A stretch of 63,934 bases of DNA, filler included, from an uncultured Myxococcia bacterium (GTDB lineage Bacteria; CAZTWC01), in the NCBI GenBank assembly GCA_964617105.1. It is 3 parts of 3 records of this genome, joined end to end, with 100 filler letters (N's around TTAATTAATTAA, not from the genome) between each part and the next. Parts side by side here need not be neighbours in the genome. Positions count along the whole stretch, not along the records: positions 53,041 to 63,934 come from CAZTWC010000107.1; 2 more parts are not named here. The stretch is one strand, 5' to 3'. A program made the translations under genes and the position numbers. Shown here one piece after another: positions 26,656 through 63,934 of this stretch. How positions within the stretch are numbered: the first letter of the stretch is position 1; each line of letters begins with the position of its first letter. The notes below the pieces were generated by a model. It searched no databases, was not told the DNA's origin, and saw only the letters and a list, made by a program, of their open reading frames with translations.

Positions 26656-26755
26656 NNNNNNNNNNNNNNNNNNNNNNNNNNNNNNNNNNNNNNNNNNNNT
26701 TAATTAATTAANNNNNNNNNNNNNNNNNNNNNNNNNNNNNNNNNNNNNNNNNNNN
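26656..26755. other. Artificial contig spacer
   Basis: N44-TTAATTAATTAA-N44, stops in all six frames. Confidence 0.98.
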
Positions 26756-52940: not shown

Positions 52941-53040
52941 NNNNNNNNNNNNNNNNNNNNNNNNNNNNNNNNNNNNNNNNNNNNTTAATTAATTAANNNN
53001 NNNNNNNNNNNNNNNNNNNNNNNNNNNNNNNNNNNNNNNN
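52941..53040. other. Artificial contig spacer
   Basis: N44-TTAATTAATTAA-N44. Confidence 0.98.
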
Positions 53041-53356
53041 ATATTACTGGTCGAGAGCATAGTTCTCGTGCATCTTCAAATCCGGAACATCCGTTTGATG
53101 GTCCCGATCCGGGAAAGTTTAAGAAAAGTTGTTTGAATTCAACGAGTTCCTTTTTGCGCAAAATGACATAATCAATCCCCTCGACAAATTCATCTTTCCA
53201 TTCACCGGTAATTTTAGACACCAGCCGTTTACCCAGATTGCTGTAACCTAAAATCTTCCCTACTTCTTTGCCGATCCAACACGGTAGTCCCTGGTAATAA
53301 ATTGTGGAGATAAGATTGCCATTAAACTCATTGGTTAACTGAACAAAATCGGTCAT
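53041..53356 (-). CDS. BRO-N/antirepressor-like protein, 3'-partial
   Basis: FNGNLISTI..G.PCWIGKEVGKILGYS...EFVEGIDY. Confidence 0.65.
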
Positions 53357-53433
53357 AATTTATCCCTTTCTGATGTTTATTTAAAAATTCCTAAAATTTT
53401 CCTGAAATATTTCCCAATATTCGCTTCAAAATT

Positions 53434-54261
53434 CTATTTGACCGCCATTAAAACACAGCGGCAGAGCGGGTGACTGGGCGGTGGCTCAACCTTATCTGTT
53501 CTGTACACCTGGCCATGTTTGGAAGCACACCCAGGACAAGTCCTCCGGTCAAGCGCCGCCCACCACTGAACTTTTTTAACCCCTGCCTCTTTGTAAAACG
53601 CCACCCGGCCGGCATTGTGAGCACGGTTAATCTCGGTCCGGCATATCAGCCTCAATCTCTGCTGCGTGCTTTTAAATACAGTTTTGCCAGCTTTTTTAAA
53701 ATTTTTATCATCGATTACTTTGCCAATTTCCCTGACCATCTCGGGGGTGCTTTTGCCAGATACAATCCCTGCGGCAATTCTGGTTTTAATCTCATACTGT
53801 AATTGCTCCGAAAGACTGCCCATAAGTTGCATCCGGTATTTGATAAAAAAATCAAGCGCATCTTTGTCAATAGTGGTAAAAACAATATCCACAAGAGCAT
53901 TTGCTTCACCTGCTTTTACGGCAGCGTAGTCAGGGATTTTTAGATATTTCAAATCAGAAACTCCTTCAAGCATCCCCTGCCTGAAGGCTTGCCGGGTATG
54001 ATCAGGTGCCGTACCTGTCAAATCTCTTTCCAATGCGCTGGCAATCCTGTCAATCGCTCCTTTGAGCGTGGCCATTTGCGCCAGCCTTGCTGCCTGACCT
54101 TGCGACAATGGCGCTGCCTCCTCAAAAGTATAGATTTCCTCTTTTACTTGACGGGCAGCCATCCTAAGAACTCTTTCCAACTCCTTTACCTGCCTGGTTT
54201 CAAGCCGATCATGTTTGGAACTAATCCTTTTTCCAACTGATTTGAATGCCTGGCTGTCCAT
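53434..54261 (-). CDS. Phage head morphogenesis / minor capsid protein (SPP1 gp7 / Mu gpF family)
   Basis: RLICRTEINRAHNAG, WWAALDRRTCPGC...HG, PPSHPLCRC. Confidence 0.93.
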   Translation of the reverse strand: MDSQAFKSVGKRISSKHDRLETRQVKELERVLRMAARQVKEEIYTFEEAAPLSQGQAARLAQMATLKGAIDRIASALERDLTGTAPDHTRQAFRQGMLEGVSDLKYLKIPDYAAVKAGEANALVDIVFTTIDKDALDFFIKYRMQLMGSLSEQLQYEIKTRIAAGIVSGKSTPEMVREIGKVIDDKNFKKAGKTVFKSTQQRLRLICRTEINRAHNAGRVAFYKEAGVKKVQWWAALDRRTCPGCASKHGQVYRTDKVEPPPSHPLCRCVLMAVK

Positions 54262-55602
54262 TTAACAACTCCCATAAATTTGTTCTGTTGCCGCAGCCTC
54301 CGGTTCCCTTTCTCCATTATCTTTCAATCCAAGCATATGCCTGGCCTCATTTGGCGTCATCACATCCAGGGAGATCAGTTTAACCAAATCATCCACACTA
54401 AAATTGTTGTCAGTAACAGTTTTTTCCTGCTCTTTATTGGCATTTTCCAGGGCAGGATCAAGCCCCATCTTGCCCTGCAGAGTTTTTTGGGATATAAGCC
54501 CCCGGTCATACATCTCCAAAAATATTTTTTTAATGTCAGTCTCGTTGTGCAAATCAAGGTCATTGAACTGATAGGCAATTTTTTTATCTTCATTACCCTT
54601 CATCTGCTGCCAGGCATAAAAAACAAAATCCAGAATATCCCGGGCAGCCTGCTTAATTTCCTTCAACTGGACGATAAATTTCTGCAATGAAATAGATGCA
54701 GTGGCATAATTTGGGCCATCCCCGGTAATAAGACTTCTGGACATACCCATTGCTACCAGGATATCTTCCTTTATCTGTTTGACCTTCTCGTTAGTATCCA
54801 AAGTATGGCCATCTGTTCCGTGGGTCTCGACAGTCACATAGTTCGGCACCACAGCCCCGGCCTGCAAATCCATGCTGTTTAGCACATTGCGTAAATCTTC
54901 AATCTCCCGCTTATCAGGCATAATGTATTTTTTTCCAAACACACCGCCCACCTTGATTAGCCTTAGCGGCGTTGTCCACCGCCTGGCTATCGCTCGCTCA
55001 GCCCGCCTGTAATCACGCAATAGTTCAATAGACTCAAAAGCAGGCAGCACCATCGAGTTACCCCTTTGGGAATACTGCGGGCAGTTCCACTTATAATGAA
55101 TAATTTTCTCCAGCGGCAGGGATATTTCATCAGTTGCCGATGCTCCCTGAGCATTCTTTGCTTTTTGCACCGCTTCAATCAGTTTGCCGCTTTTATACTG
55201 CAGATTCACAGTAGTTGGGTTCACGCATATCACCCGGCCAATATCATCTTTGGCAGTTGTGCGCTCAAAATAGCCAATCGCATCACCTTTTACCAAAAGT
55301 TGAAGCACCATATCTTTGACAAAACGGTTTAAATTCTGCCGGTTATAAAATTTTCGGGCATCTTGTTCAACCTCAGAATCCTCGCAGGTAACCTTGATTT
55401 CATCACCTAAAGCAAACACCCGCCAGCAGTTGATAATGTTCGATATCAGCGGCTCTTCACAATAATATTGCCAAGCCTGCCCGGCTTTTTCATGCCAATT
55501 GTCAGGGACAGCGTCTTTAGCTGTATATGCCTTGAAAACACTGGTGTCAAGGGCTGCAGCAGCCATTTGTCCCCGGGTGATTAGATTGCCGTTGATTTCC
55601 AT
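54262..55602 (-). CDS. Phage portal protein
   Basis: Position between terminase and head morphogenesis genes; LLVKGDA, IIHYK..RGNS, GDGPNYATA, MTPNEARHMLGL. Confidence 0.85.
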   Translation of the reverse strand: MEINGNLITRGQMAAAALDTSVFKAYTAKDAVPDNWHEKAGQAWQYYCEEPLISNIINCWRVFALGDEIKVTCEDSEVEQDARKFYNRQNLNRFVKDMVLQLLVKGDAIGYFERTTAKDDIGRVICVNPTTVNLQYKSGKLIEAVQKAKNAQGASATDEISLPLEKIIHYKWNCPQYSQRGNSMVLPAFESIELLRDYRRAERAIARRWTTPLRLIKVGGVFGKKYIMPDKREIEDLRNVLNSMDLQAGAVVPNYVTVETHGTDGHTLDTNEKVKQIKEDILVAMGMSRSLITGDGPNYATASISLQKFIVQLKEIKQAARDILDFVFYAWQQMKGNEDKKIAYQFNDLDLHNETDIKKIFLEMYDRGLISQKTLQGKMGLDPALENANKEQEKTVTDNNFSVDDLVKLISLDVMTPNEARHMLGLKDNGEREPEAAATEQIYGSC

Positions 55603-55620
55603 TAGTTCCCCTCTTTGGTG

Positions 55621-57156
55621 TTAAATGAATATTGGGTCTGTTATCGCAAAAGGCATTTTGATAATAAGTTCCATTGGCTCTATTTCATTGAGCCTCTCCA
55701 TGTCCCGGGCCATAAAGGCAACCCTCACAGCATCAATTATATGGTCCCGGCCTTTGCGGTAGATAATCCCATTGGCAGTAACATTATAGGTATGGCTGAT
55801 AAACTGATCTTCCAGTTCAATATCATCTGATGGAAACTCCACCTTTTTCCGTGACAGCGCTGAGTTGATAAGCGATGTCATATACTCTTTGGTGCGCTTT
55901 TTTAACGGCTTGTCACCGTTATAGCCAACTGTTGTCATACCGCCAAAATCAATACCATAGAGTCTTTCTCGCAAATCATTGGCCCTGAATTTATCCAGTG
56001 TAAGCAACTCCTGGACAACCGCCATACCATTGCCGCCATTGTCAATCCCCAGTGCCTCCGGCTTATACGCCATATCCATGGTAGCGATGATATCTGCTAA
56101 AATGGGATAGGAAACATGTTCTGTATGAACCCGGAGTTTTAACCGCAAAACCCCATCTATCTCTTCAAAAAGCACTATTTCAGATGGGTCGGCAGTATAG
56201 CCAAGGTCAGCCCCCAGATAGTAAATACCTTTGCATTTGGGTAGATTCAAAATATCAGAAACCCGGTTTTGGATCTCTTCTTCACAGTTGCAACTATCAA
56301 ATGCTTCGGAGGTAATTACTATTTTCCAGTAATCCTGAATATCGATAAGACAGCGCATAAACTGTTCGGCATTAAATACATTATAGGCTGGCCGGCCATG
56401 CTCGCCCGCTATCTCATGCTGCCAGTCCGGATTGTCTCTGCCGCCGTAAAACTCAAGAAGTTCCCTTTCCCGCTTTTTACTCCAGAGCGGGCTTATCCAA
56501 CTTGGCCAGTGGAATTTTGTCCAGCCCGGTATCTTGGTAGTTAGTTTGTAATAATAAGTGTCCCGAACACCGTTGGGAGTAGAGTAAATTCGCATTTTTC
56601 CTTTGGGTAAAAGACACATTCTGAGTGCTTTCCAGGCTCTGTCGGGAATATAAGCCGCCTCGTCAACATATAGTCTCATCACATGCAGCGACCGCACCGC
56701 CTTGCCATCAGGCCCGGCTGATCTAAAATGCAATACTGTTCCGTTGGAAAACTCGATGCGATAGTAAGGTTTGCGGATAATTTTAAGGTTGCCGGTCTTG
56801 GTCTTGGCAATACTGGCCATCAGGTCTTCAACATTCTCCAGTTGAAACTCCAATTCATCTATCAGAGTGTCCAAGTGACCCTGGTAGGGCGCCACTATCA
56901 GGGCTGACCCACCCATGGTGATAAAAGCATAGTGAAGAACATGGGTGACAAGAGATACGCTTTTGCCCGTCTCCCTTCCATCCTGGTGGACAATATACTC
57001 GTCCTGGCAGCGCAGGTCTTCTCTCTGGTGCTTCCAGTATTTACGGCTTTTACAGTTTCGGTTTTTGAGGTAAAACTCCGCCCACTTAACTGGATCACTT
57101 ATGATCGCCATGATTTTCTCTTTGTCCATCTTGCAAATACTTTTTAAAGCAGCCAT
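55621..57156 (-). CDS. terL: Terminase large subunit
   Basis: Walker A GRETGKS, Walker B LYVDEAA, STPNG coupling motif, nuclease LGADLG and DHIIDA; AAGGAG RBS. Confidence 0.9.
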   Translation of the reverse strand: MAALKSICKMDKEKIMAIISDPVKWAEFYLKNRNCKSRKYWKHQREDLRCQDEYIVHQDGRETGKSVSLVTHVLHYAFITMGGSALIVAPYQGHLDTLIDELEFQLENVEDLMASIAKTKTGNLKIIRKPYYRIEFSNGTVLHFRSAGPDGKAVRSLHVMRLYVDEAAYIPDRAWKALRMCLLPKGKMRIYSTPNGVRDTYYYKLTTKIPGWTKFHWPSWISPLWSKKRERELLEFYGGRDNPDWQHEIAGEHGRPAYNVFNAEQFMRCLIDIQDYWKIVITSEAFDSCNCEEEIQNRVSDILNLPKCKGIYYLGADLGYTADPSEIVLFEEIDGVLRLKLRVHTEHVSYPILADIIATMDMAYKPEALGIDNGGNGMAVVQELLTLDKFRANDLRERLYGIDFGGMTTVGYNGDKPLKKRTKEYMTSLINSALSRKKVEFPSDDIELEDQFISHTYNVTANGIIYRKGRDHIIDAVRVAFMARDMERLNEIEPMELIIKMPFAITDPIFI

Positions 57157-57194
57157 CAGCACTCCTTAAGATTTATCCATTTATCTGCATATTG

Positions 57195-57225
57195 CTTGAC
57201 TTCTTCTCAAATGGAAGCAAGCATG
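57195..57225 (+). promoter_or_regulatory. Conserved promoter-like motif CTTGACTTC-N11-AAGCAAGCATG
   Basis: Second copy with identical spacing at 57742-57772; TTGACT -35-like hexamer. Confidence 0.65.
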
Positions 57226-57271
57226 CCATTGGTAGTTGGCAATAATGTCTTGAACTTATTGGAGGAAGATT

Positions 57272-57613
57272 ATGATTGAAGTAAAAACTCTCAAAGACGC
57301 TGTTCCCGAATACATGGCCTATCTGGAATCCCAGGGGAAAAAGAAAAGCACCCAATACACCGTCAATTTGAACCTCAATTTGATGGTCAAACACTTTGGT
57401 GAGGAGAAAGAACTTGGTAAAATGTTGGCTACCCATGTGGCTAGTTTTTTCAATAGCGAATTGGCTACCAAGGTTAATGGCCGACCAAGGAGCGATGCTA
57501 CCAAATTGCAAATCAGACGTATCGCCAGACAATTTCTGGTCTGGGCAAATAAAGAGGGTTTGATAAACTCTATCCCCCTTCCCAATGATGAAAAACGATT
57601 TATTAAAAACTGA
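57272..57613 (+). CDS. Stand-alone phage integrase N-terminal SAM-like (core-binding) protein
   Basis: TLKDAVPEYMAYLESQGKKKSTQYT...HVASFFNS...RSDAT...RQFLVWA..EG; GGAGG RBS; no catalytic domain. Confidence 0.65.
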   Translation: MIEVKTLKDAVPEYMAYLESQGKKKSTQYTVNLNLNLMVKHFGEEKELGKMLATHVASFFNSELATKVNGRPRSDATKLQIRRIARQFLVWANKEGLINSIPLPNDEKRFIKN

Positions 57614-57741
57614 TTGAAAAGATTGATCCTGCCCATTTTTTAGTGAAGCAGAATATATATTCGCTTCAATCACAGGCGTCGGGCATCTTCCGGCGCCTTT
57701 CTTCGTTCCAGATAAAGTGGTTGATATTGCAGCACTATTGA

Positions 57742-57772
57742 CTTGACTTCCATTAGAAGCCAAGCAAACATG
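57742..57772 (+). promoter_or_regulatory. Conserved promoter-like motif CTTGACTTC-N11-AAGCAAACATG
   Basis: Matches 57195-57225 in both blocks and spacing; lies upstream of the recombinase gene. Confidence 0.65.
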
Positions 57773-57856
57773 AGGATAGAAGGTCGCAGATGACAGGTAC
57801 AGGCCAAGAGAGAAAATAAGCAGGCTGGCAATAGTATTCAAGGGAGAGAGGTAAAA

Positions 57857-58741
57857 ATGCAAATTTCTGAATCTATCGAAAAGTTTCTGACCACCCAGGC
57901 AGCATCCAATAAAAGCGAACTTACCATTGATGTCTACAGGCGGGAGTTTGGCAGGCTTACCACTTTTACCGGGGATATTGATATTACCGGTTTTACCCCT
58001 GACATTATCAACAACTTCATCCTCTCTGATCTGGCTCAAAAAACTCCCACCGGCCGGATGCGCTCTGAGATTACCATCTCCAGGCTGAAAGCGTGTCTGC
58101 GCTCCTTTGGCAACTTTCTGGTCGACCATGATATTTTTGCGAAAAACCCGGCCCGGGGCCTTGCCATCAAGAGAACTGTCAGGCAAGAGCCCACTTTTCT
58201 GAGTGCTGATGAAAGAAAACTTTTGATTAAAGTTATCACCAGGCAGCGAGGGGAGATGGCTGAACGGGACCGGGTTATTTTTGAACTCTTTTTGGGAACC
58301 GGCATCCGGCTCTCTGAACTTGTCAATCTCAATATTTGTGATGTCAGGCTGGATGATAAAAAAATCACTATCAAAGCCAAGGGAGGAAGGAGTGAAAGCC
58401 GGTTTATCAATAGCCATTTGCGCAGGCTTTTGAAAAACTGGCTGAGAAAGAGAAGGGATATGGTATCGGCAAGTAAAGCGTTTTTTCTGTCCAACCGAGG
58501 CTCCCGCATTACCAGAAGGCAGGTGCAGCGCCGGTTTAGTCAGTGGGTTGATGCTGCAGGCATTACTAAAAAACTCACCGTCCACTCCCTGCGCCATACT
58601 TTTGCCTCCAGCCTGTATGGCAGAACCAGAAACCTTATCCTCGTATCCAAAGCCCTTGGCCATCGCCAGGTTGCCACTACCCAGGTCTACACCCATCTTT
58701 TTGACCACGAACTGGAAGATGCTATCGAGGACATGGCATAG
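57857..58741 (+). CDS. XerC/D-like tyrosine recombinase
   Basis: TGIRLSEL, KGG, HSLRHTFAS, LGH...TTQVYTH (R-K-H-R-H-Y catalytic set). Confidence 0.95.
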   Translation: MQISESIEKFLTTQAASNKSELTIDVYRREFGRLTTFTGDIDITGFTPDIINNFILSDLAQKTPTGRMRSEITISRLKACLRSFGNFLVDHDIFAKNPARGLAIKRTVRQEPTFLSADERKLLIKVITRQRGEMAERDRVIFELFLGTGIRLSELVNLNICDVRLDDKKITIKAKGGRSESRFINSHLRRLLKNWLRKRRDMVSASKAFFLSNRGSRITRRQVQRRFSQWVDAAGITKKLTVHSLRHTFASSLYGRTRNLILVSKALGHRQVATTQVYTHLFDHELEDAIEDMA

Positions 58742-58878
58742 GGACAAAGTTGAAAAGCCAAGAGCAGCCATCCTGCCTTTGATAGTATTTGCCAACTTTT
58801 TATCATTTGTCATTTTTGCCATTTTTTTACTCAATCCAGTGTCAATCGTGAGAAATTTTTACCAAAGTCGCTTCAATA

Positions 58879-58908
58879 AAGGTCGCAGAAGTTATCATCT
58901 GTGACCTT
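58879..58908. promoter_or_regulatory. Putative tyrosine-recombinase core site (11-bp arms, 8-bp spacer)
   Basis: aaggtcgcaga-agttatca-tctgtgacctt, arms 10/11 complementary; extra half-sites at 57780 and 58964. Confidence 0.55.
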
Positions 58909-59106
58909 CTTAAAAATCTGACTGTCGTGATCATGCATAGTTACAAAATCCTTCCCAACGACATCTGTGACCTTTTTTTGCCGTTTTCGGCGAAATCATA
59001 GCCTTTACCCAATTCTGTCAAAGTGAATCCAGTATCTTGAAAATCATCCCACCCTTGATTTAAGCAGGGATTAGTGGTATCTTTATAATTAAAGGGAGGT
59101 GTCAAA

Positions 59107-59334
59107 ATGAGCGTTACAGCCAGAAAAAATGAAGTGGCAATAGCACATGCCCAAGTATTTATTACTGCCTTTCGTGCACTCAACTCTGATATCAGGCAGG
59201 AGATAATTTCTGAACTTTTAAACGATGAAGATTTACGTGATGACATCGAATCTGCTCTTTTATGGGAAGATAGAAAAAGTGAACCTAGCCGTTCTTTTCG
59301 TGAATACCTGACTGAATATGAAGCCACCCTCTGA
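59107..59334 (+). CDS. Putative antitoxin (RelB-like, acidic)
   Basis: AQVFITAFRAL...LLNDEDLRDD...RKSEPSRSFREYL; GGAGG RBS and TATAAT upstream. Confidence 0.6.
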   Translation: MSVTARKNEVAIAHAQVFITAFRALNSDIRQEIISELLNDEDLRDDIESALLWEDRKSEPSRSFREYLTEYEATL

Positions 59335-59403
59335 TCGCACACTAAATTTTTCCTATTCCAAATCGCCTGAAAAAGAGTTACTATTGTCTTAGGAGGTTTA
59401 AAC

Positions 59404-59634
59404 ATGGCAGTTACAGCACCATCAAAAAAAGTAGAAGCCATCTTTGGCCAGATTCTCCAGTTGGATGAAGATTCCCTCTGGAGACTGGTCTGCAAACTCT
59501 TCCCAAATAGTGACGAAGAGGATCTGGAGGATATTTTTGACTCCATTCTATCTTCCATGCGCAGCCAGGGGCCTCGAATACCGGCGGATAATGTTTTTAC
59601 TATAGAAGACTCTAGGCGAGGCATTACCCGTTGA
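59404..59634 (+). CDS. Putative antitoxin, cognate to downstream RelE
   Basis: Small acidic protein, AGGAGG RBS, TTGA overlap with toxin start. Confidence 0.65.
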   Translation: MAVTAPSKKVEAIFGQILQLDEDSLWRLVCKLFPNSDEEDLEDIFDSILSSMRSQGPRIPADNVFTIEDSRRGITR

Positions 59635-59892
59635 AATACTCCATCGCTTTTCATCCCACCGCTCAAAAAAATCTGGAGAAACTTTCCAGCGAATACTACG
59701 AGAAAGTCCGAGAAAAAATTTATGCCCTTCAAGAAGACCCCCGCCCAACCGGTGTAACCAAACTGAAAGGGAGAAAAATTTCTTGGAGAATACGAATCGG
59801 TACNNNNNNNNNNGGTTGTCTTTTGCATCGATGATACTGCTCAGGAAGTTTACATCACCTCCATTGGACACCGCCGGCAGGTTTATCGTTAA
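59631..59892 (+). CDS. relE: RelE/ParE family toxin (10-N gap inside)
   Basis: AQKNLEKL...IYALQEDPRPTGVTKLKG...WRIRIG[N gap]VVFCIDD...IGHRRQVYR*. Confidence 0.88.
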
Positions 59893-59900
59893 TCCTGCTG

Positions 59901-60485
59901 TCATTTTTTTACCCCACGTTTATCCAATTTCTTTTTCCCAATCTCCCGTTTCTTACACTCTGCCATCAAACTGGCCGCCCAGTCCGCCGGACTGCTAATC
60001 TTGATTTCTGTTCCCTCCCGTTTCTCTCGGGTGATTTTCAGGCAATTCAGGTTTTTCCTCATCAGCCGGTCGTAGATGGCTGACATATCCAGCATGTTGT
60101 CCCTGACTGCCTTTTGCCACTGGACAAAATAGTAGGCCGCCATCTGCGCCTGCATCTGGTCCGAAGAACCGTTGAGCCTGAAATCACGCTCGATGCTGTC
60201 CAGGGTGTTGTCCAGCAAAGCCTGCTCCTCGGGGTCTTTTAGATGCAAAGCCAAAATGCCTGTGCGCCATGGGTTTTGTATGTTGCCCACATTTTTCATC
60301 CTGATTTTTCGCTCCCCGTAATGACTCCAACAGTATTTTTTTCCCAACACTGCTGGGTTTGTACATGGTTTTCCTCGAAGGGTTGTTGCTTCACACTGTT
60401 TTGCTTTCTCGTTAAATGGCAAATCAATTCTCTTTCCTGTTTTAATAGTCCTGAGATTTGCGCCCAGCTTGAGAAATCCACACAC
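59901..60485 (-). CDS. Putative terminase small subunit-like protein (HGGxSTG-type N-terminal Zn motif)
   Basis: CEATTLRGKPCTNPAV.GKKYCWSHYG, GN.NPWRTG, helical C-terminus; same strand as and upstream of terL. Confidence 0.5.
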   Translation of the reverse strand: MCGFLKLGANLRTIKTGKRIDLPFNEKAKQCEATTLRGKPCTNPAVLGKKYCWSHYGERKIRMKNVGNIQNPWRTGILALHLKDPEEQALLDNTLDSIERDFRLNGSSDQMQAQMAAYYFVQWQKAVRDNMLDMSAIYDRLMRKNLNCLKITREKREGTEIKISSPADWAASLMAECKKREIGKKKLDKRGVKK

Positions 60486-60719
60486 CTATGTGCTTTTCTA
60501 ACTGCAATTATATCAAACCGAACTGTCCAAACCCCCTCTCTGAGCGCAACAGAATACAGCATTATTGCAATGGGCAAAAACACTAAACATTTCGCGTAAT
60601 TACAAAGGGGCATATTTGGGGCCAAGGCATTTTTGAAACGATTTTCAGAACGCCACCTGATTGTTGTTAAAAAAGCCCAATGATTACGCCAAGATAACTT
60701 TTTCACACTATTGACACCG

Positions 60720-60986
60720 CTAAACATGATTGGGATACCTTTCACGAAAAGCCTGCAGCAGTTGAAAAATACGGCGTTCAGTCAATCCCATTCGCAGAGC
60801 AATCGCCTTTGTTGACAAACCCTCTTCGTAATGCAGATAACCTACAAATTTACATCGTTGGATTACTTTTTCTGTCTTGCCGGTTGAAATATAAATATAC
60901 ATCCCACCCAGACCCATAGCCCGGATTGTTTTTATCATCTCTGCCGGTAAAACTTCTTCAGCCTTTCTGCTTCTGGTGTTCTTCAT
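60720..60986 (-). CDS. Small HTH regulator (Mor/late-activator-like)
   Basis: AEEVLPAEMI...YIYI...GLSTKAIALRMGLTERRIFQLL. Confidence 0.65.
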   Translation of the reverse strand: MKNTRSRKAEEVLPAEMIKTIRAMGLGGMYIYISTGKTEKVIQRCKFVGYLHYEEGLSTKAIALRMGLTERRIFQLLQAFRERYPNHV

Positions 60987-61303
60987 GACCGCTCCTTAAA
61001 AGTTGGTAATTGATAGACCTTTTGAAAATCGGTTGCCCTTGCTTTCAACTCCTTGATGAACTTGATTACTTCAGCCTTATTTTCGCTCATCGATTCGTAA
61101 AATTTACACCTGACCTTCCTCCTTTCAAAAACCCGGTGGGCATCATAATATTTTTCATCTCCTAACAAATACCGCCACCTTCCTTTGGTGCACTTCACTT
61201 TGAAAACAAATTGAGTTCCCTCCTCATTGTAACTTCTAAAACGTTTACAGAACGCGCAGTCGGCGCAGTAAATGTGTCCGTTATTAGATTTTGAGTTACT
61301 CAT
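60983..61303 (-). CDS. Hypothetical Cys-containing phage protein
   Basis: IYCADCAFC...VKC..C; coupled to both neighbours. Confidence 0.6.
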   Translation of the reverse strand: MSNSKSNNGHIYCADCAFCKRFRSYNEEGTQFVFKVKCTKGRWRYLLGDEKYYDAHRVFERRKVRCKFYESMSENKAEVIKFIKELKARATDFQKVYQLPTFKERS

Positions 61304-61643
61304 CTTCAGTCTCCTCCTCTTCTGAGCCAAATATCTCAAACAACTCTTCTAAAAACCCTAAAAACTCTTCGAGAAACATTGCGGCCACAGGCTCTTGTCC
61401 AGGCCGCTGGCAAATAGCCATCACTGGACGTGGTAGATCACAGTTGTACCGGGCGAAATCTAAAGTATCTTCCAGAGATGCTAATTCACCGTAGGCTGAC
61501 TCAGCCCAAAAATACGGCATCTCGATAGTGGGGCCGGGGCTACCAAAAATCTCTCCTTCGCCAACAGCCACCTCCCCAGGGCCGAAAAGTTCTTCAAGTT
61601 GGATTGTAATCATTTTTTCCCATTGCCGGTTTCGCTTTGCCAT
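61296..61643 (-). CDS. Hypothetical acidic phage protein
   Basis: GGAG RBS, coupled to next gene; P.RPVMAICQRPGQEPVAAMFLEEF resembles the C-terminus of phage Holliday-junction-resolvase-like proteins. Confidence 0.55.
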   Translation of the reverse strand: MAKRNRQWEKMITIQLEELFGPGEVAVGEGEIFGSPGPTIEMPYFWAESAYGELASLEDTLDFARYNCDLPRPVMAICQRPGQEPVAAMFLEEFLGFLEELFEIFGSEEEETEDE

Positions 61644-61667
61644 GAAACTCTCTCCCTTTTGCTGCAG

Positions 61668-62462
61668 TTAAAATTGACATATATTTTTGTTGTAAAAGCG
61701 CAGAACGCTGCCTGTAGACGTTTTCAGTTCGATAGTCCGGGATGTCACTTCGCCCAGCCTGTCACCGTTATCTATAAAGTTGACAATCCCCCAGTCGAAA
61801 CCATAGGGGAAGGCGAAAGTTCCCTGGTTTTGATAAAGGCTGGATTCCGTCCAGCCAAGTGATATGGCGTTGTCTTTGACCGCATCCACCTGGGCGATAG
61901 CCCAATCACTTACCGGATTGCAAATCGGCAAAGTTGCATCTGCTGGAAACATAAAGATAGTTTTCCCTTTGTTGTTGAGTGAAGGCATCGGCAGAATATT
62001 GAGCCGGCGTTTGGCAGCATCAAAATCGTCTGGATTAAAAAATCTATTGGCCAGAGATTTGATACTGTTAAAGCGGATATCAACTATTTCGGCGATTTTA
62101 CGGTCAACCAATTTTTTCTCTACCGCCCGTTTAAAATTAAAAAATCGTTTTGTAATCCACATAAAATAATCGGGTGATAGACGTCTATATTTTTTACCGC
62201 CATGCAAAATATCCTCTCTGGCTGTGCCAGCCTTAAGTCCATCTAATATTTCCAAATCGGTCGCCACCCAGATATCAACATTCCGCTTGTCACAAACATT
62301 GCAGCGTTGTAATTGATATTGACTTTGCAACTGCCATTTTGGAAGTTGATTTTGGGGTTTACAGGCTGCCAGCCGCTGCTGCGTAACGTTGGATGTAGCA
62401 TTCATCATCCCCTCTCTCCCTCTTCCTGATTCGATTCCCTGGTTTGCCGTTGGCATTGTCAA
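61668..62462 (-). CDS. Hypothetical phage protein, paralog B
   Basis: Aligns over full length with 62479-63357. Confidence 0.8.
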   Translation of the reverse strand: MTMPTANQGIESGRGREGMMNATSNVTQQRLAACKPQNQLPKWQLQSQYQLQRCNVCDKRNVDIWVATDLEILDGLKAGTAREDILHGGKKYRRLSPDYFMWITKRFFNFKRAVEKKLVDRKIAEIVDIRFNSIKSLANRFFNPDDFDAAKRRLNILPMPSLNNKGKTIFMFPADATLPICNPVSDWAIAQVDAVKDNAISLGWTESSLYQNQGTFAFPYGFDWGIVNFIDNGDRLGEVTSRTIELKTSTGSVLRFYNKNICQF

Positions 62463-62478
62463 ATTCCCCTTGTTTCAA

Positions 62479-63357
62479 TTAACGACGTAAATATTTTTTA
62501 TTTAAAACGGGATTGAATTCGCCCGTGGACGAAATCACCTCGATATACCGAGAAGTGACATTTTCAATAATGTCCCCACGGTTAATGACATTAACCAATC
62601 CCCATTCATATCCGTATGGAAATGAGGCTGTTCCTTGGTTCTGATAAAGACCAGGCTCCGTCCAACCCAGATGGAGTGCTTCATCTTGGATAGTATCTAC
62701 CAGAGACAAAACATAATCGGTTACCGGATTGAAAATCGGCAATTTCTCATTTGCAGGGTACATAAATGGAGTTGGCTTTTCATCTTCGGGGGAAATCATT
62801 GGAAATGTTTTTAGTCTGATTTCGGCAGAATCATAATCTTGTTGATTAAAAATTTTTTCTGCCCAGAAATGAATCTCCTGTAAGAGTGATTCAATTATTA
62901 TTGAAGTTTCACTGTCAATTAACTGTCTTTCTTTCATCCACTTAAAAGATTGAAACCGTTTTTTAATCCACAAAAAGTAATCCGGAGACAGACGCCTGAA
63001 AATTTTATCAGCATGCAAGATATCCTCTCGAACAGTATTTGGCTCGGTAATCTCGAGAATTTCCAAATCTGTTGCCGCCCAAATATTTACCTGCCGTTCA
63101 TCACAGATACGATAGCGTTGTAATTCATTTTTGCTTTGAGTTTGCCATTTATTGGCAAACATGGCGTTGCAGGTAACCAGTCGGCGCTGCGAATAGTTGG
63201 ATGTAGCCTTTTTGATTTTCATCTTCTTTTTTTGAACTGATTCGACTCTTGGATTTGCTTTTTGCATTGTCAAATTCTCCATTTTATTTTTTGTGTCATT
63301 GTAATGCTTTGAAATGACATTGATTTTTTCCCAAAAGCACCTCCCTTGTTTTTTCAC
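62479..63357 (-). CDS. Hypothetical phage protein, paralog A
   Basis: Shared blocks W.ATDLEIL, REDILH, RRLSPDYF.WI.KRF, LGWTE..LYQNQGT..FPYG..WG. Confidence 0.8.
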   Translation of the reverse strand: MKKQGRCFWEKINVISKHYNDTKNKMENLTMQKANPRVESVQKKKMKIKKATSNYSQRRLVTCNAMFANKWQTQSKNELQRYRICDERQVNIWAATDLEILEITEPNTVREDILHADKIFRRLSPDYFLWIKKRFQSFKWMKERQLIDSETSIIIESLLQEIHFWAEKIFNQQDYDSAEIRLKTFPMISPEDEKPTPFMYPANEKLPIFNPVTDYVLSLVDTIQDEALHLGWTEPGLYQNQGTASFPYGYEWGLVNVINRGDIIENVTSRYIEVISSTGEFNPVLNKKYLRR

Positions 63358-63363
63358 TTAAAA

Positions 63364-63912
63364 CTATGTACTTATAATATAGTTATTAGTGAAAAAACGG
63401 GGGAATCGCTTTTGTCCATTTTTACCTACAATTTCAAAAGGTTCTGAAAGACCGGGGTAACTTTTCAAAAAATCGACTGCACAAGATACTTTTTCTGGAC
63501 CATTTATGAACACATCGATTTTGGTTCTATTTTTTCTGGCGCTGGCCATTAGTGAAATTCTTTTCAATCCCAACTCCTCTCTCACAGCATCCTTGAATCG
63601 ATAGAATGCTGATTTAGAAATTTTTCTGTCTTTGACAATATTTTTCCAAAAACCCGATTTTTTCAGATATTCTTTTACCTCCGGAGAGGGCCTGGCGTCC
63701 TTACCGACAACCGGCCAAAGAGTTCGGGCCGGACAGACAAATCCCATTGTTTTAAGTTGCTGTTTGAAGTATTTACGAACCAGCGATAATGCTTTTTCTG
63801 TTTTTGGCGGTTTTTTCCGGCCCAATATGTCATCGATTGACACCAGTTTTGCAACTGGTAAATCTGGTATAACCAGGTTGGTTAGCAGGAAAATTTCCTT
63901 AGATGAATCCAA
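63364..63912 (-). CDS. Hypothetical phage protein (start uncertain, may extend beyond window)
   Basis: 182-aa basic ORF co-oriented with the operon. Confidence 0.6.
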   Translation of the reverse strand: MDSSKEIFLLTNLVIPDLPVAKLVSIDDILGRKKPPKTEKALSLVRKYFKQQLKTMGFVCPARTLWPVVGKDARPSPEVKEYLKKSGFWKNIVKDRKISKSAFYRFKDAVREELGLKRISLMASARKNRTKIDVFINGPEKVSCAVDFLKSYPGLSEPFEIVGKNGQKRFPRFFTNNYIIST

Positions 63913-63934
63913 ACAAGGTCGAATACGATTTATG

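Follow-up and report, generated by a model that had tools for sequence, protein, structure and literature searches.

A conserved tyrosine recombinase and core-binding-domain partner beside the packaging genes of temperate phages, a possible system for circularising or resolving phage DNA

Introduction

Why would a phage keep a tyrosine recombinase gene antisense among its packaging genes? The question is raised by a 63,934-nucleotide (nt) stretch of DNA, referred to here as the window, from the assembly of an uncultured Myxococcia bacterium (GCA_964617105.1), in which five + strand genes lie inside an otherwise - strand phage operon. The five open reading frames (ORFs) encode a stand-alone core-binding protein, a tyrosine recombinase, two small proteins and a RelE-type toxin, and they occupy the 2738 nt between the gene for the large terminase subunit (terL) and a gene for a 194-amino-acid (aa) protein that is a candidate small terminase (TerS). 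A sequence-only reading of the window had taken these genes for an inserted cassette that serves either as a dimer-resolution and maintenance module of an extrachromosomal prophage or as a switch controlling packaging genes, and had judged that they do not represent an ordinary attP integrase at a prophage end. We found all five ORFs in the positions assigned to them, together with the palindrome that had been noted at 58879-58908. The identities given to the core-binding protein, the tyrosine recombinase and RelE also held, while the two genes called antitoxin-like matched no family.

Based on the comparison with related phages that we report here, we favour a tentative reading, somewhat short of probable, in which the core-binding partner, the Xer-type recombinase and a tripartite DNA site form a conserved module in the packaging block of temperate phages, which would circularise or resolve phage DNA and would not be an integrase. 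On this reading, the RelE genes are unrelated cargo.

Results

The recombinase and its partner are conserved upstream of terL

The window joins three contigs (C16, C17 and C107) of a 489-contig, 4.07-Mb assembly by N spacers at 26656-26755 and 52941-53040, each of which consists of 44 N, 12 bases and 44 N; here and below, C, L and G numbers denote contigs, loci and genomes. All five + strand genes sit on C107 alone (10,894 bp; window 53041-63934). Because C107 and the left-hand contigs are joined artificially, the cellular genes to the left of C107 are unlinked to the recombinase locus. The terL gene of C107 (55621..57162, - strand), which opens a terL-portal-MuF head block, encodes a 513-aa protein that matches Pfam Terminase_6C (4.9e-5) and PHROG 2, terminase large subunit (1.3e-26). 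A single terL protein scanned against viral contigs gave no match, and relatives were instead gathered by terL alignment, which retrieved 80 IMG/VR loci and 80 loci from named genomes. The terL proteins of these 160 related loci are 50-57% identical to that of C107.

We found the recombinase and partner genes antisense upstream of terL in 109 of the 114 loci that have at least 3 kb of upstream flank, and a homologue of the 194-aa gene also lies beyond the pair in 92 of the 100 loci whose flank reaches 5 kb or more. When loci were dereplicated at 90% terL identity, the pair was present in 31 of 35 loci, and the pair together with the 194-aa homologue in 27 of 34. The comparison of terL homologues that the sequence-only reading had called for therefore showed that the pair is conserved at this position. 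Among the five exceptions, L055 and L056 encode the recombinase and have no match to the partner, and L175, L178 and L182 are without the pair; in L175, a gene resembling that for the 194-aa protein lies 75 nt from terL. A terL tree of 51 rows shows the pair throughout. Four rows, dispersed over the tree, are scored as having neither gene, and this pattern suggests that the pair is ancestral and has occasionally been lost. The midpoint outgroup of the tree consists of four copies from genome G056, each with the recombinase and without the partner. The idea of an inserted cassette consequently fails for the recombinase, the partner and the site, which are conserved and apparently ancestral, and survives only for the toxin-antitoxin genes as variable cargo.

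The source assembly holds at least five sister elements, with terL proteins 48-66% identical. On C110, the gene order is 264-aa-like, 118-aa-like, helix-turn-helix (HTH), 194-aa-like, antisense recombinase and core-binding genes, terL, portal and MuF, with no toxin-antitoxin genes; C405, C294 and C457 carry partial versions of this order, and the sister proteins are approximately 60% identical. The recombinase and terL diverge alike, each being 61% identical to its counterpart on C110. C273 encodes a 194-aa-like gene directly upstream of terL (43-nt gap) and has no recombinase pair.

Carriage of several family prophages by one genome seems common, with four copies in G056 and two in one complete Desulfosarcina genome. 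Record titles of the loci include Desulfobacterota, Hydrogenedentota, Armatimonadota, Planctomycetota, Nitrospirota and Gammaproteobacteria, and 62 of the 160 loci are alike at 90% terL identity or more, under host titles such as Geobacteraceae, Desulfobulbus, Ectothiorhodospira and Syntrophus. The titles also name cultured hosts, among them Syntrophus buswellii DM-2, Desulfosarcina alkanivorans PL12, Desulfobulbus rhabdoformis DSM 8777 and Ectothiorhodospira shaposhnikovii DSM 243. One 2.4-kb terL contig (L176) is filed under a metagenome-assembled genome titled Aenigmatarchaeota archaeon; as the family is otherwise bacterial, this is likely to reflect a binning error. The 60 comparison genomes for the source genome are related to it at domain level only, so the host lineage was uninformative. 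The sequencing runs listed as containing C107 DNA are marine or seawater metagenomes, with no RNA run among them.

A Xer-type recombinase and a stand-alone core-binding protein

The recombinase gene (57857..58741, + strand) encodes a 294-aa protein that matches Pfam Phage_integrase (PF00589; 3.8e-37, 128 bits against a cut-off of 27). The protein consists of core-binding and catalytic domains only, and the arm-binding N-terminal domain of the lambda type is absent. The catalytic residues R151, K175, H243, R246, H269 and Y278 are invariant in 19 of 19 aligned family members. The top NCBIfam matches are XerC (2.4e-55), XerA (3.4e-51) and XerD, and the scores fall short of every equivalog cut-off (XerC, 188 of 335 bits; XerA, 174 of 220; XerD, 168 of 330; XerS, 117 of 267).

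The partner gene (57272..57613, + strand) encodes a stand-alone core-binding (SAM-like) protein of 113 aa without a catalytic domain, which matches PHROG 1, integrase, in the N-domain part only (4.9e-9). Its AlphaFold2 (AF2) fold was predicted with a mean local confidence score (pLDDT) of 94.8, and Foldseek aligned the model with the core-binding domain of lambda Int and with XerD at template modelling (TM) scores of 0.6-0.8. Aligned by hhalign with the N-domain of the recombinase family, the partner gave 99.0% and E 3.7e-18, which at profile level makes it a paralogue of the recombinase's own N-domain. The partner family comprises 657 clusters, of which the 120 listed span 117-168 aa, and the named clusters are labelled 'hypothetical', 'Core-binding (CB) domain-containing' or 'XerD'. 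Between the partner and recombinase genes lies a terminator-like hairpin (57674..57698, + strand) with a 10-bp stem, 7 GC pairs and a T-rich tail, and a GC-rich element is also seen between these genes in C110 and C405.

A tripartite site accompanies the pair

A putative core recombination site (58879..58908) lies 138 nt past the recombinase stop codon and features inverted arms of 11-12 bp around a 6-bp (or 8-bp) centre. A distal half-site (58962..58977) directly copies the right arm 66 nt downstream, start to start, and is followed by a T run. A strict pattern of these three elements was found in 47 of 101 distinct spacers, compared with 1 of 505 shuffles; within those 47 spacers, 33 show a spacing of 66-76 nt, and the remaining 14 mostly match neighbouring repeat arrays. 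A looser search for a right arm with a copy 60-80 nt away detected 79 of the 101 distinct spacers and 17 of the 505 shuffles. Despite a protein identity of only about 60%, the site element of roughly 100 bp is nearly unchanged in C110, C457, C474 and C166. Two control loci contain exactly one site element each, in the spacer, and a scan of 17.5 kb found the element in none of three pair-less loci (L175, L178 and L182). C107 carries a single core; each prophage in two complete genomes likewise has one copy of the core 21-mer, and a search allowing up to 3 mismatches detected no other copy in those genomes.

The arms vary by lineage, but a change in the right arm is mirrored in its distal copy. 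The left arm of the largest lineage departs from the right arm at 5 of 11 positions, whereas the right arm still matches the distal copy, which argues that the conserved feature is not a hairpin. The asymmetry between left and right in this lineage is that of dif-type sites. In one review, dif is given as 11+6+11 and the genes of single-recombinase Xer systems are described as adjoining their site as one module (PMC5357621). Imperfect inverted arms of about 11 bp, a centre of 6-8 bp and an adjoining recombinase gene were found at 58879-58908 and across the family, and the 11-6-11 layout with inner GAA/TTATC is of the dif type by the account in that review (PMC5357621).

C107 also contains an extra left-arm half-site (57780..57790, + strand), an exact repeat of the 11-mer at 58879-58889 that lies 67 nt upstream of the recombinase start. 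We rejected this copy as a conserved operator, as it is not kept in C110 or C405. With up to one mismatch, the left-arm 11-mer occurs 57 times in the 4.07-Mb assembly.

Repeat arrays were observed beside the core in several relatives. In C457 and C110, an 11-bp unit, TTTGTACATGG, is repeated five times between the recombinase stop codon and the core, and loci of the Syntrophus type have four to five 27-bp near-palindromes in the same interval. On C107, only a weak 9-bp repeat lies beside the core. Repeat arrays occur beside known pac sites, and those described here could be accessory sites or pac repeats.

An integrated relative carries a serine recombinase at its end

One relative is a prophage integrated in a complete Syntrophus chromosome, where the pair, flanked on each side by phage genes and with its site intact, sits about 20 kb from one prophage end. 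We called the genes of this prophage from ORFs and the GC content of third codon positions (GC3) and named them by Pfam. From cellular nuo-type genes, the order begins with a 564-aa large serine recombinase and an S24/LexA-like repressor, and continues with a PD-(D/E)XK nuclease, AAA_24, DUF669, a RecD-like helicase and a primase. Homologues of the 264-aa, HTH and 194-aa genes follow, and then the recombinase and partner genes, antisense and with overlapping ends; two small ORFs, terL, portal, a 1527-aa MuF fusion and further long ORFs complete the order. The long ORFs after MuF are read as tail genes from their size and an N-terminal motif only. Two fusions were observed in the head module (L211 5896-10479 and 11436-15299), in which MuF forms the N part of the 1527-aa protein and a D12 adenine methyltransferase opens a 1287-aa protein.

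The serine integrase at the end of the Syntrophus prophage indicates that the tyrosine recombinase is not the integrase of that prophage. Its gene and site do not stand at a junction, nor are they split by integration, which agrees with the earlier judgement that this is no ordinary attP integrase at a prophage end. Furthermore, arm sites of the lambda type were not found, as the distal element copies a core arm and has no distinct arm-type sequence. An IMG/VR provirus (L213-L214) is colinear with the Syntrophus prophage (L209-L212) at 73-79% nucleotide identity, and within this background a 6.4-kb block from the 264-aa-like gene to the terL stop codon is 93% identical, which suggests that the packaging block and the recombination module are inherited or exchanged as a unit. 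In the source assembly, C99, a contig separate from C107, encodes proteins homologous (36-47%) to the serine integrase, the repressor and the replication proteins. With the relatives that could be placed being integrated as well, the extrachromosomal prophage that the sequence-only reading had proposed is left without support.

The recombinase might be an integrase after all, with its site serving as attP for a second chromosomal target, or it might be the main integrase in lineages that lack the serine enzyme; we consider this quite unlikely. Simple tyrosine recombinases with a nearby site can integrate, and elements that exploit Xer integrate at dif (PMC5357621). The most distant clade, represented by the four copies of G056 and without a partner gene, is a setting in which such a role could apply. 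Variable low-GC DNA follows its recombinase gene, the homology between its contigs C6 and C2 stops about 200 nt past the recombinase, and copies become homologous again only after more than 10 kb; a search past the recombinase for homologues of replication or lysogeny genes found none. However, the ends of the G056 elements showed no flanking direct repeats, only chance 11-13-mers. The midprophage position of the intact pair and site in Syntrophus, the lack of a second core copy in the two complete chromosomes and the missing arm-binding domain also count against integration. Contigs of the source assembly do break at the site, but these breaks are otherwise explained, because the site is a repeat common to sister elements, with overlaps of 55 nt. 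No tRNA genes were found near the loci in the 16 examined.

Three observations concern the contigs of these elements. On C6 of G056 (L022 12199-17000), about 10 kb of low-GC DNA (0.40-0.52 vs 0.65-0.70) follows the recombinase gene, which may be either an island of cargo at the usual position or DNA flanking the element. C474 and C326 (L031) share 55-nt overlaps at both ends, so that in the assembly graph an inverted repeat borders the 5.75-kb path through the site, and the core of this copy adjoins a 130-nt remnant of the MuF 3' end instead of the recombinase. On C166, recombinase residues 80-292 abut MuF residue 36. The C474/C326 and C166 copies look like relics from which packaging genes have been deleted.

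Regulation, cargo capture and packaging signals as alternatives

A second alternative, which we regard as improbable, is that the module is mainly a regulator, in which the partner, and perhaps the recombinase, binds the arms or arrays to control late or packaging transcription, or in which recombination operates an inversion switch. The fold matches of the partner include recombinase-fold phage repressors (SroF, 9rd5; MrpR, 8a0a), whose roles we take from their PDB titles. The pair diverges from terL across an intergenic region (57163..57271) that by sequence may hold promoters, and a 31-nt stretch of it (57195-57225) is repeated at 71% upstream of the recombinase gene (57742-57772). The extra half-site upstream of the recombinase start on C107 would also suit regulation, but it is not kept in sister contigs. 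In addition, all six catalytic residues are kept in 19 of 19 members, whereas pure regulators tend to lose them. A tyrosine invertase acts on two inverted sites that bracket a promoter or gene, and each prophage has a single core, hence no inversion partner. With one core per prophage and no second copy in two complete genomes, the proposed switch controlling packaging genes found no support. An inverted 20-nt pair (57133-57152 and 58773-58792) was considered as an inversion site and rejected as chance, since its 80% match is equalled by 24 other pairs in 2.9 kb.

The genes between the recombinase and the 194-aa gene differ from one relative to the next. On C107, they begin with a 75-aa ORF (59107..59334, + strand), which has no family match, is found on this contig only within the assembly and is a possible orphan antitoxin. 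This ORF weakly resembles the next, a 76-aa ORF (59404..59634, + strand), at 26% over 62 aa (E 0.023). The 76-aa ORF is a presumed antitoxin, as its stop codon overlaps the start (59631-59634) of a RelE/ParE-type toxin gene (59631..59892, + strand), and on C326 an ORF 34% identical to it precedes a ParE/RelE gene. Neither small ORF matched a family in Pfam, PHROGs or NCBIfam. The N part of the toxin matches phrog_1213 (8.5e-11), which together with the overlapping small upstream gene is the arrangement of a type II toxin-antitoxin system.

The RelE gene contains a 10-N run (59804-59813) that is a scaffold gap, and with 10 N the C part of the gene continues in a different frame. Contigs from two other runs cross the gap with 4 letters fewer, which gives a true gap of 6 nt and keeps RelE in frame, and one such contig, 720 nt long, extends from the 76-aa gene through RelE into the 3' end of the 194-aa gene. 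Because independent contigs bridge the gap, the structure of C107 is real and the RelE join is no assembly artefact; with homologous phages also carrying the pair, the assembly join that would have undone the sequence-only reading is set aside. In two runs, a second contig variant was observed with six base differences in the 75-aa ORF (59271-59313), an indication that the cargo differs between strains.

The spacer between the recombinase and 194-aa genes ranges from 154 to 2435 nt in 104 loci. It contains a Fic/Doc gene in L196, and Fic/Doc genes also occur on C326 and C322 of the source assembly; other spacers contain a nucleotidyltransferase (L197), an N6/N4 methylase (L145) or MTES_1575/DUF559 endonuclease-like genes (L112, L155 and L163). 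The cargo lies between the distal half-site and the 194-aa gene on C107, and between the recombinase and the core in L163 and L196. From their sequences, we conclude that the RelE toxin-antitoxin genes are apparently swappable cargo in a permissive spacer between two convergent genes. This diversity of spacer genes (RelE, Doc/Fic, nucleotidyltransferase, endonuclease-like, methylase) could point to a cargo-capture or self-mobile unit, such as an integron-like platform or a small mobile element carrying the recombinase. We consider such a unit highly improbable, as cargo occurs to both sides of the site and is not enclosed by site copies in the spacers searched, and the recombinase diverges with terL and follows the terL tree, unlike a hopping element.

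The least probable alternative is that the DNA element serves as pac, or forms an RNA hairpin or a terminator between the convergent genes, with the recombinase acting elsewhere. In its favour, the palindrome of C107 has a better RNA fold than shuffled versions (z -2.68; 3 of 200 shuffles equally good), a T run follows the distal copy in several lineages and 11-bp or 27-bp repeat arrays adjoin the element, as at known pac sites. Against it, the two arms of the largest lineage differ while the right arm and distal copy match, the layout is dif-type, and the element is missing from the pair-less loci L175, L182 and L178.

Neighbouring genes

On the - strand, C107 encodes in order a 189-aa ORF, the tandem 292- and 264-aa paralogues, 115- and 118-aa ORFs, the 88-aa HTH protein and the 194-aa protein; past the + strand genes come terL, the portal, a MuF-like head protein and a Bro-N-like fragment. 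The 194-aa protein (59901..60485) combines a zinc-ribbon-like N part with four long helices and contains a weak HGGxSTG motif (1.5e-4, below cut-off). An AF2 model (pLDDT 78.5) matched no TerS fold by Foldseek in PDB or BFVD. In an Atlas search, the cluster at rank 19 (score 0.78) has Terminase_4 on 28% of its members, which we treat as a lead only. The sole support for a TerS identity, which is unproven, is that homologues of the 194-aa gene stand directly upstream of terL in the pair-less relatives C273 and L175; some relatives also have ORFs of 94-109 aa directly upstream of terL.

The 88-aa HTH protein (60720..60986, - strand) resembles sigma-70 region 4, with matches to HTH_23 (1.3e-4) and Sigma70_r4_2 (1.9e-4) that both lie below cut-offs. 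Its gene is kept upstream of the 194-aa gene in sister contigs, and it is a possible late activator. The two tandem paralogues of 264 and 292 aa (61668..63357, - strand) are 48% identical and belong to the conserved block. They have no Pfam or PHROG family match. Of the 160 related loci, 91 and 92 encode homologues of them, placed upstream of the HTH and 194-aa genes.

Discussion

In the reading that we tentatively favour, the conserved pair and its site circularise or resolve phage DNA. The recombinase would act when two copies of the single phage site meet. After injection, headful-packaged DNA might bring two copies together through its terminally redundant ends, and their recombination would circularise the genome. 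Copies might also meet in dimers or multimers of the replicon before packaging, which would be resolved to monomer circles. The terL protein matches T4-type Terminase_6 domains, and the putative site lies between terL and the candidate terS gene; phages with T4-type Terminase_6 terminases often package by the headful. We would guess that the partner binds an arm (perhaps the divergent left arm), the distal half-site or the repeat arrays, and that, once bound, it might act as an architectural or regulatory factor that sets selectivity or timing.

The closest parallel for these steps is the Cre/loxP system of P1, which likewise has one simple tyrosine recombinase and one palindromic site per genome that adjoins the recombinase gene near the packaging genes. 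In the P1 record, the pac cut lies at 90,804-90,813 with pacB next, lox at 94,784-17 and cre at 436-1467, which places pac and lox about 4 kb apart, and Cre is called 'cyclization recombinase'. The record also has a late activator gene just upstream of pacA, a small ORF (cra) upstream of cre and the phd-doc addiction module about 2 kb upstream of pacA. C107 likewise encodes a possible late activator, a small ORF beside the recombinase gene and a toxin-antitoxin module. In P1, lox lies inside the terminal redundancy of first headfuls. The site of the C107 family, with its 11-6-11 layout and extra half-site, differs from lox, which is 13-8-13, and the module lies between candidate terS and terL genes, unlike its counterpart in P1.

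The module also resembles the Xer systems. Like XerS/difSL, XerH/difH and XerA/dif, it has imperfect inverted arms of about 11 bp, a 6-bp centre and a site beside the gene, as those systems are described in PMC5357621, and the top family matches of the recombinase are XerC, XerA and XerD. Unlike Xer modules, it is phage-borne and not chromosomal, its enzyme scores far under the equivalog cut-offs, it is not known to be tied to FtsK, and it includes a core-binding-only partner and a distal third half-site. The same review describes cer as needing accessory proteins, and a core with one-sided accessory DNA recalls XerCD at cer and psi, where non-catalytic proteins impose resolution selectivity (PMC5357621). 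In TLC-phi, a small phage-encoded factor, XafT, is reported to control a Xer reaction (PMC6744903). The C107 partner differs from XafT and from the accessory proteins of cer and psi (PepA, ArgR and ArcA) in that it is a copy of the recombinase's DNA-binding domain, and its accessory role would be by analogy. Likewise, MrpR (SPbeta) and SroF (phi3T), whose PDB titles are among the fold matches, use a tyrosine-recombinase DNA-binding fold without catalysis, but by those titles they are full-length two-domain master repressors, in contrast to the single-domain C107 partner, which is always paired with an active recombinase.

Several points weigh against a circularising or resolving role. Headful packaging, the position of pac and terminal redundancy are only presupposed for all members of the family, and the terS family of the 194-aa protein found no match in Pfam, PHROGs, NCBIfam or PDB profiles. 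No recombination joints were found in the contigs of four runs, although contigs cannot reveal rare junctions. The likeness to P1 does not extend to the proteins, as hhalign gave 0.4% for the C107 family profile against P1 Cre and 0.16% for the partner against P1 Cra, and a core-binding-only partner and a distal half-site are without precedent in Cre or Xer systems. P1 is a plasmid prophage, whereas placed relatives of C107 are prophages integrated by a serine recombinase, to which lysogen maintenance of the Cre-like P1 kind is inapplicable. An integrase role could apply in the G056 clade, and the module, lost in four rows of the tree, appears from this distribution to be dispensable in at least some backgrounds. 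Among cultured phages, the best terL match is 28% identical. For the dimer-resolution and maintenance role once assigned to an extrachromosomal prophage, these comparisons leave the resolution-type (Cre/Xer-like) activity as the best fit, while the integrated state of the placed relatives removes the extrachromosomal part. Xer-like recombinases of plasmid prophages are believed to resolve dimers, according to a passage of PMC8026635.

Within the Cre/Xer-like kind, this module is new in its partner, in the layout of its site and in its setting. A stronger proposal, which we rate as unlikely, is that it constitutes a new two-protein machine, in which an active Xer-type enzyme and a catalytically empty copy of its core-binding domain would work on an asymmetric core and a distal half-site about seven helical turns away. 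The partner, on one arm or on the distal site, would set direction or selectivity as the DNA of an integrative temperate phage is circularised or resolved. In the full-text literature, outside of which lie subscription journals and bioRxiv supplements, we came across no account of a recombinase that is accompanied by a core-binding-only partner and lies between terminase genes.

For annotation, the locus implies that a tyrosine recombinase adjoining terL is no marker of a prophage end, and that cargo genes for toxin-antitoxin systems, methylases and nucleases have a preferred location in the spacer next to the recombinase. If the proposed role in circularising or resolving phage DNA is true, hundreds of uncultured prophages and a few prophages of cultured hosts would carry a second recombination system beside their integrase, one that is tied to the packaging genes. 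The circularising or resolving function has so far been tied to plasmid prophages such as P1, and Cre/lox logic would then extend from phage-plasmids to integrating phages. The domain-only paralogue would enter recombinase biology as a partner design, and the compact recombinases of about 300 aa, with diversified 28-bp sites in at least eight distinct arm sets, could be used as orthogonal tools for genome engineering.

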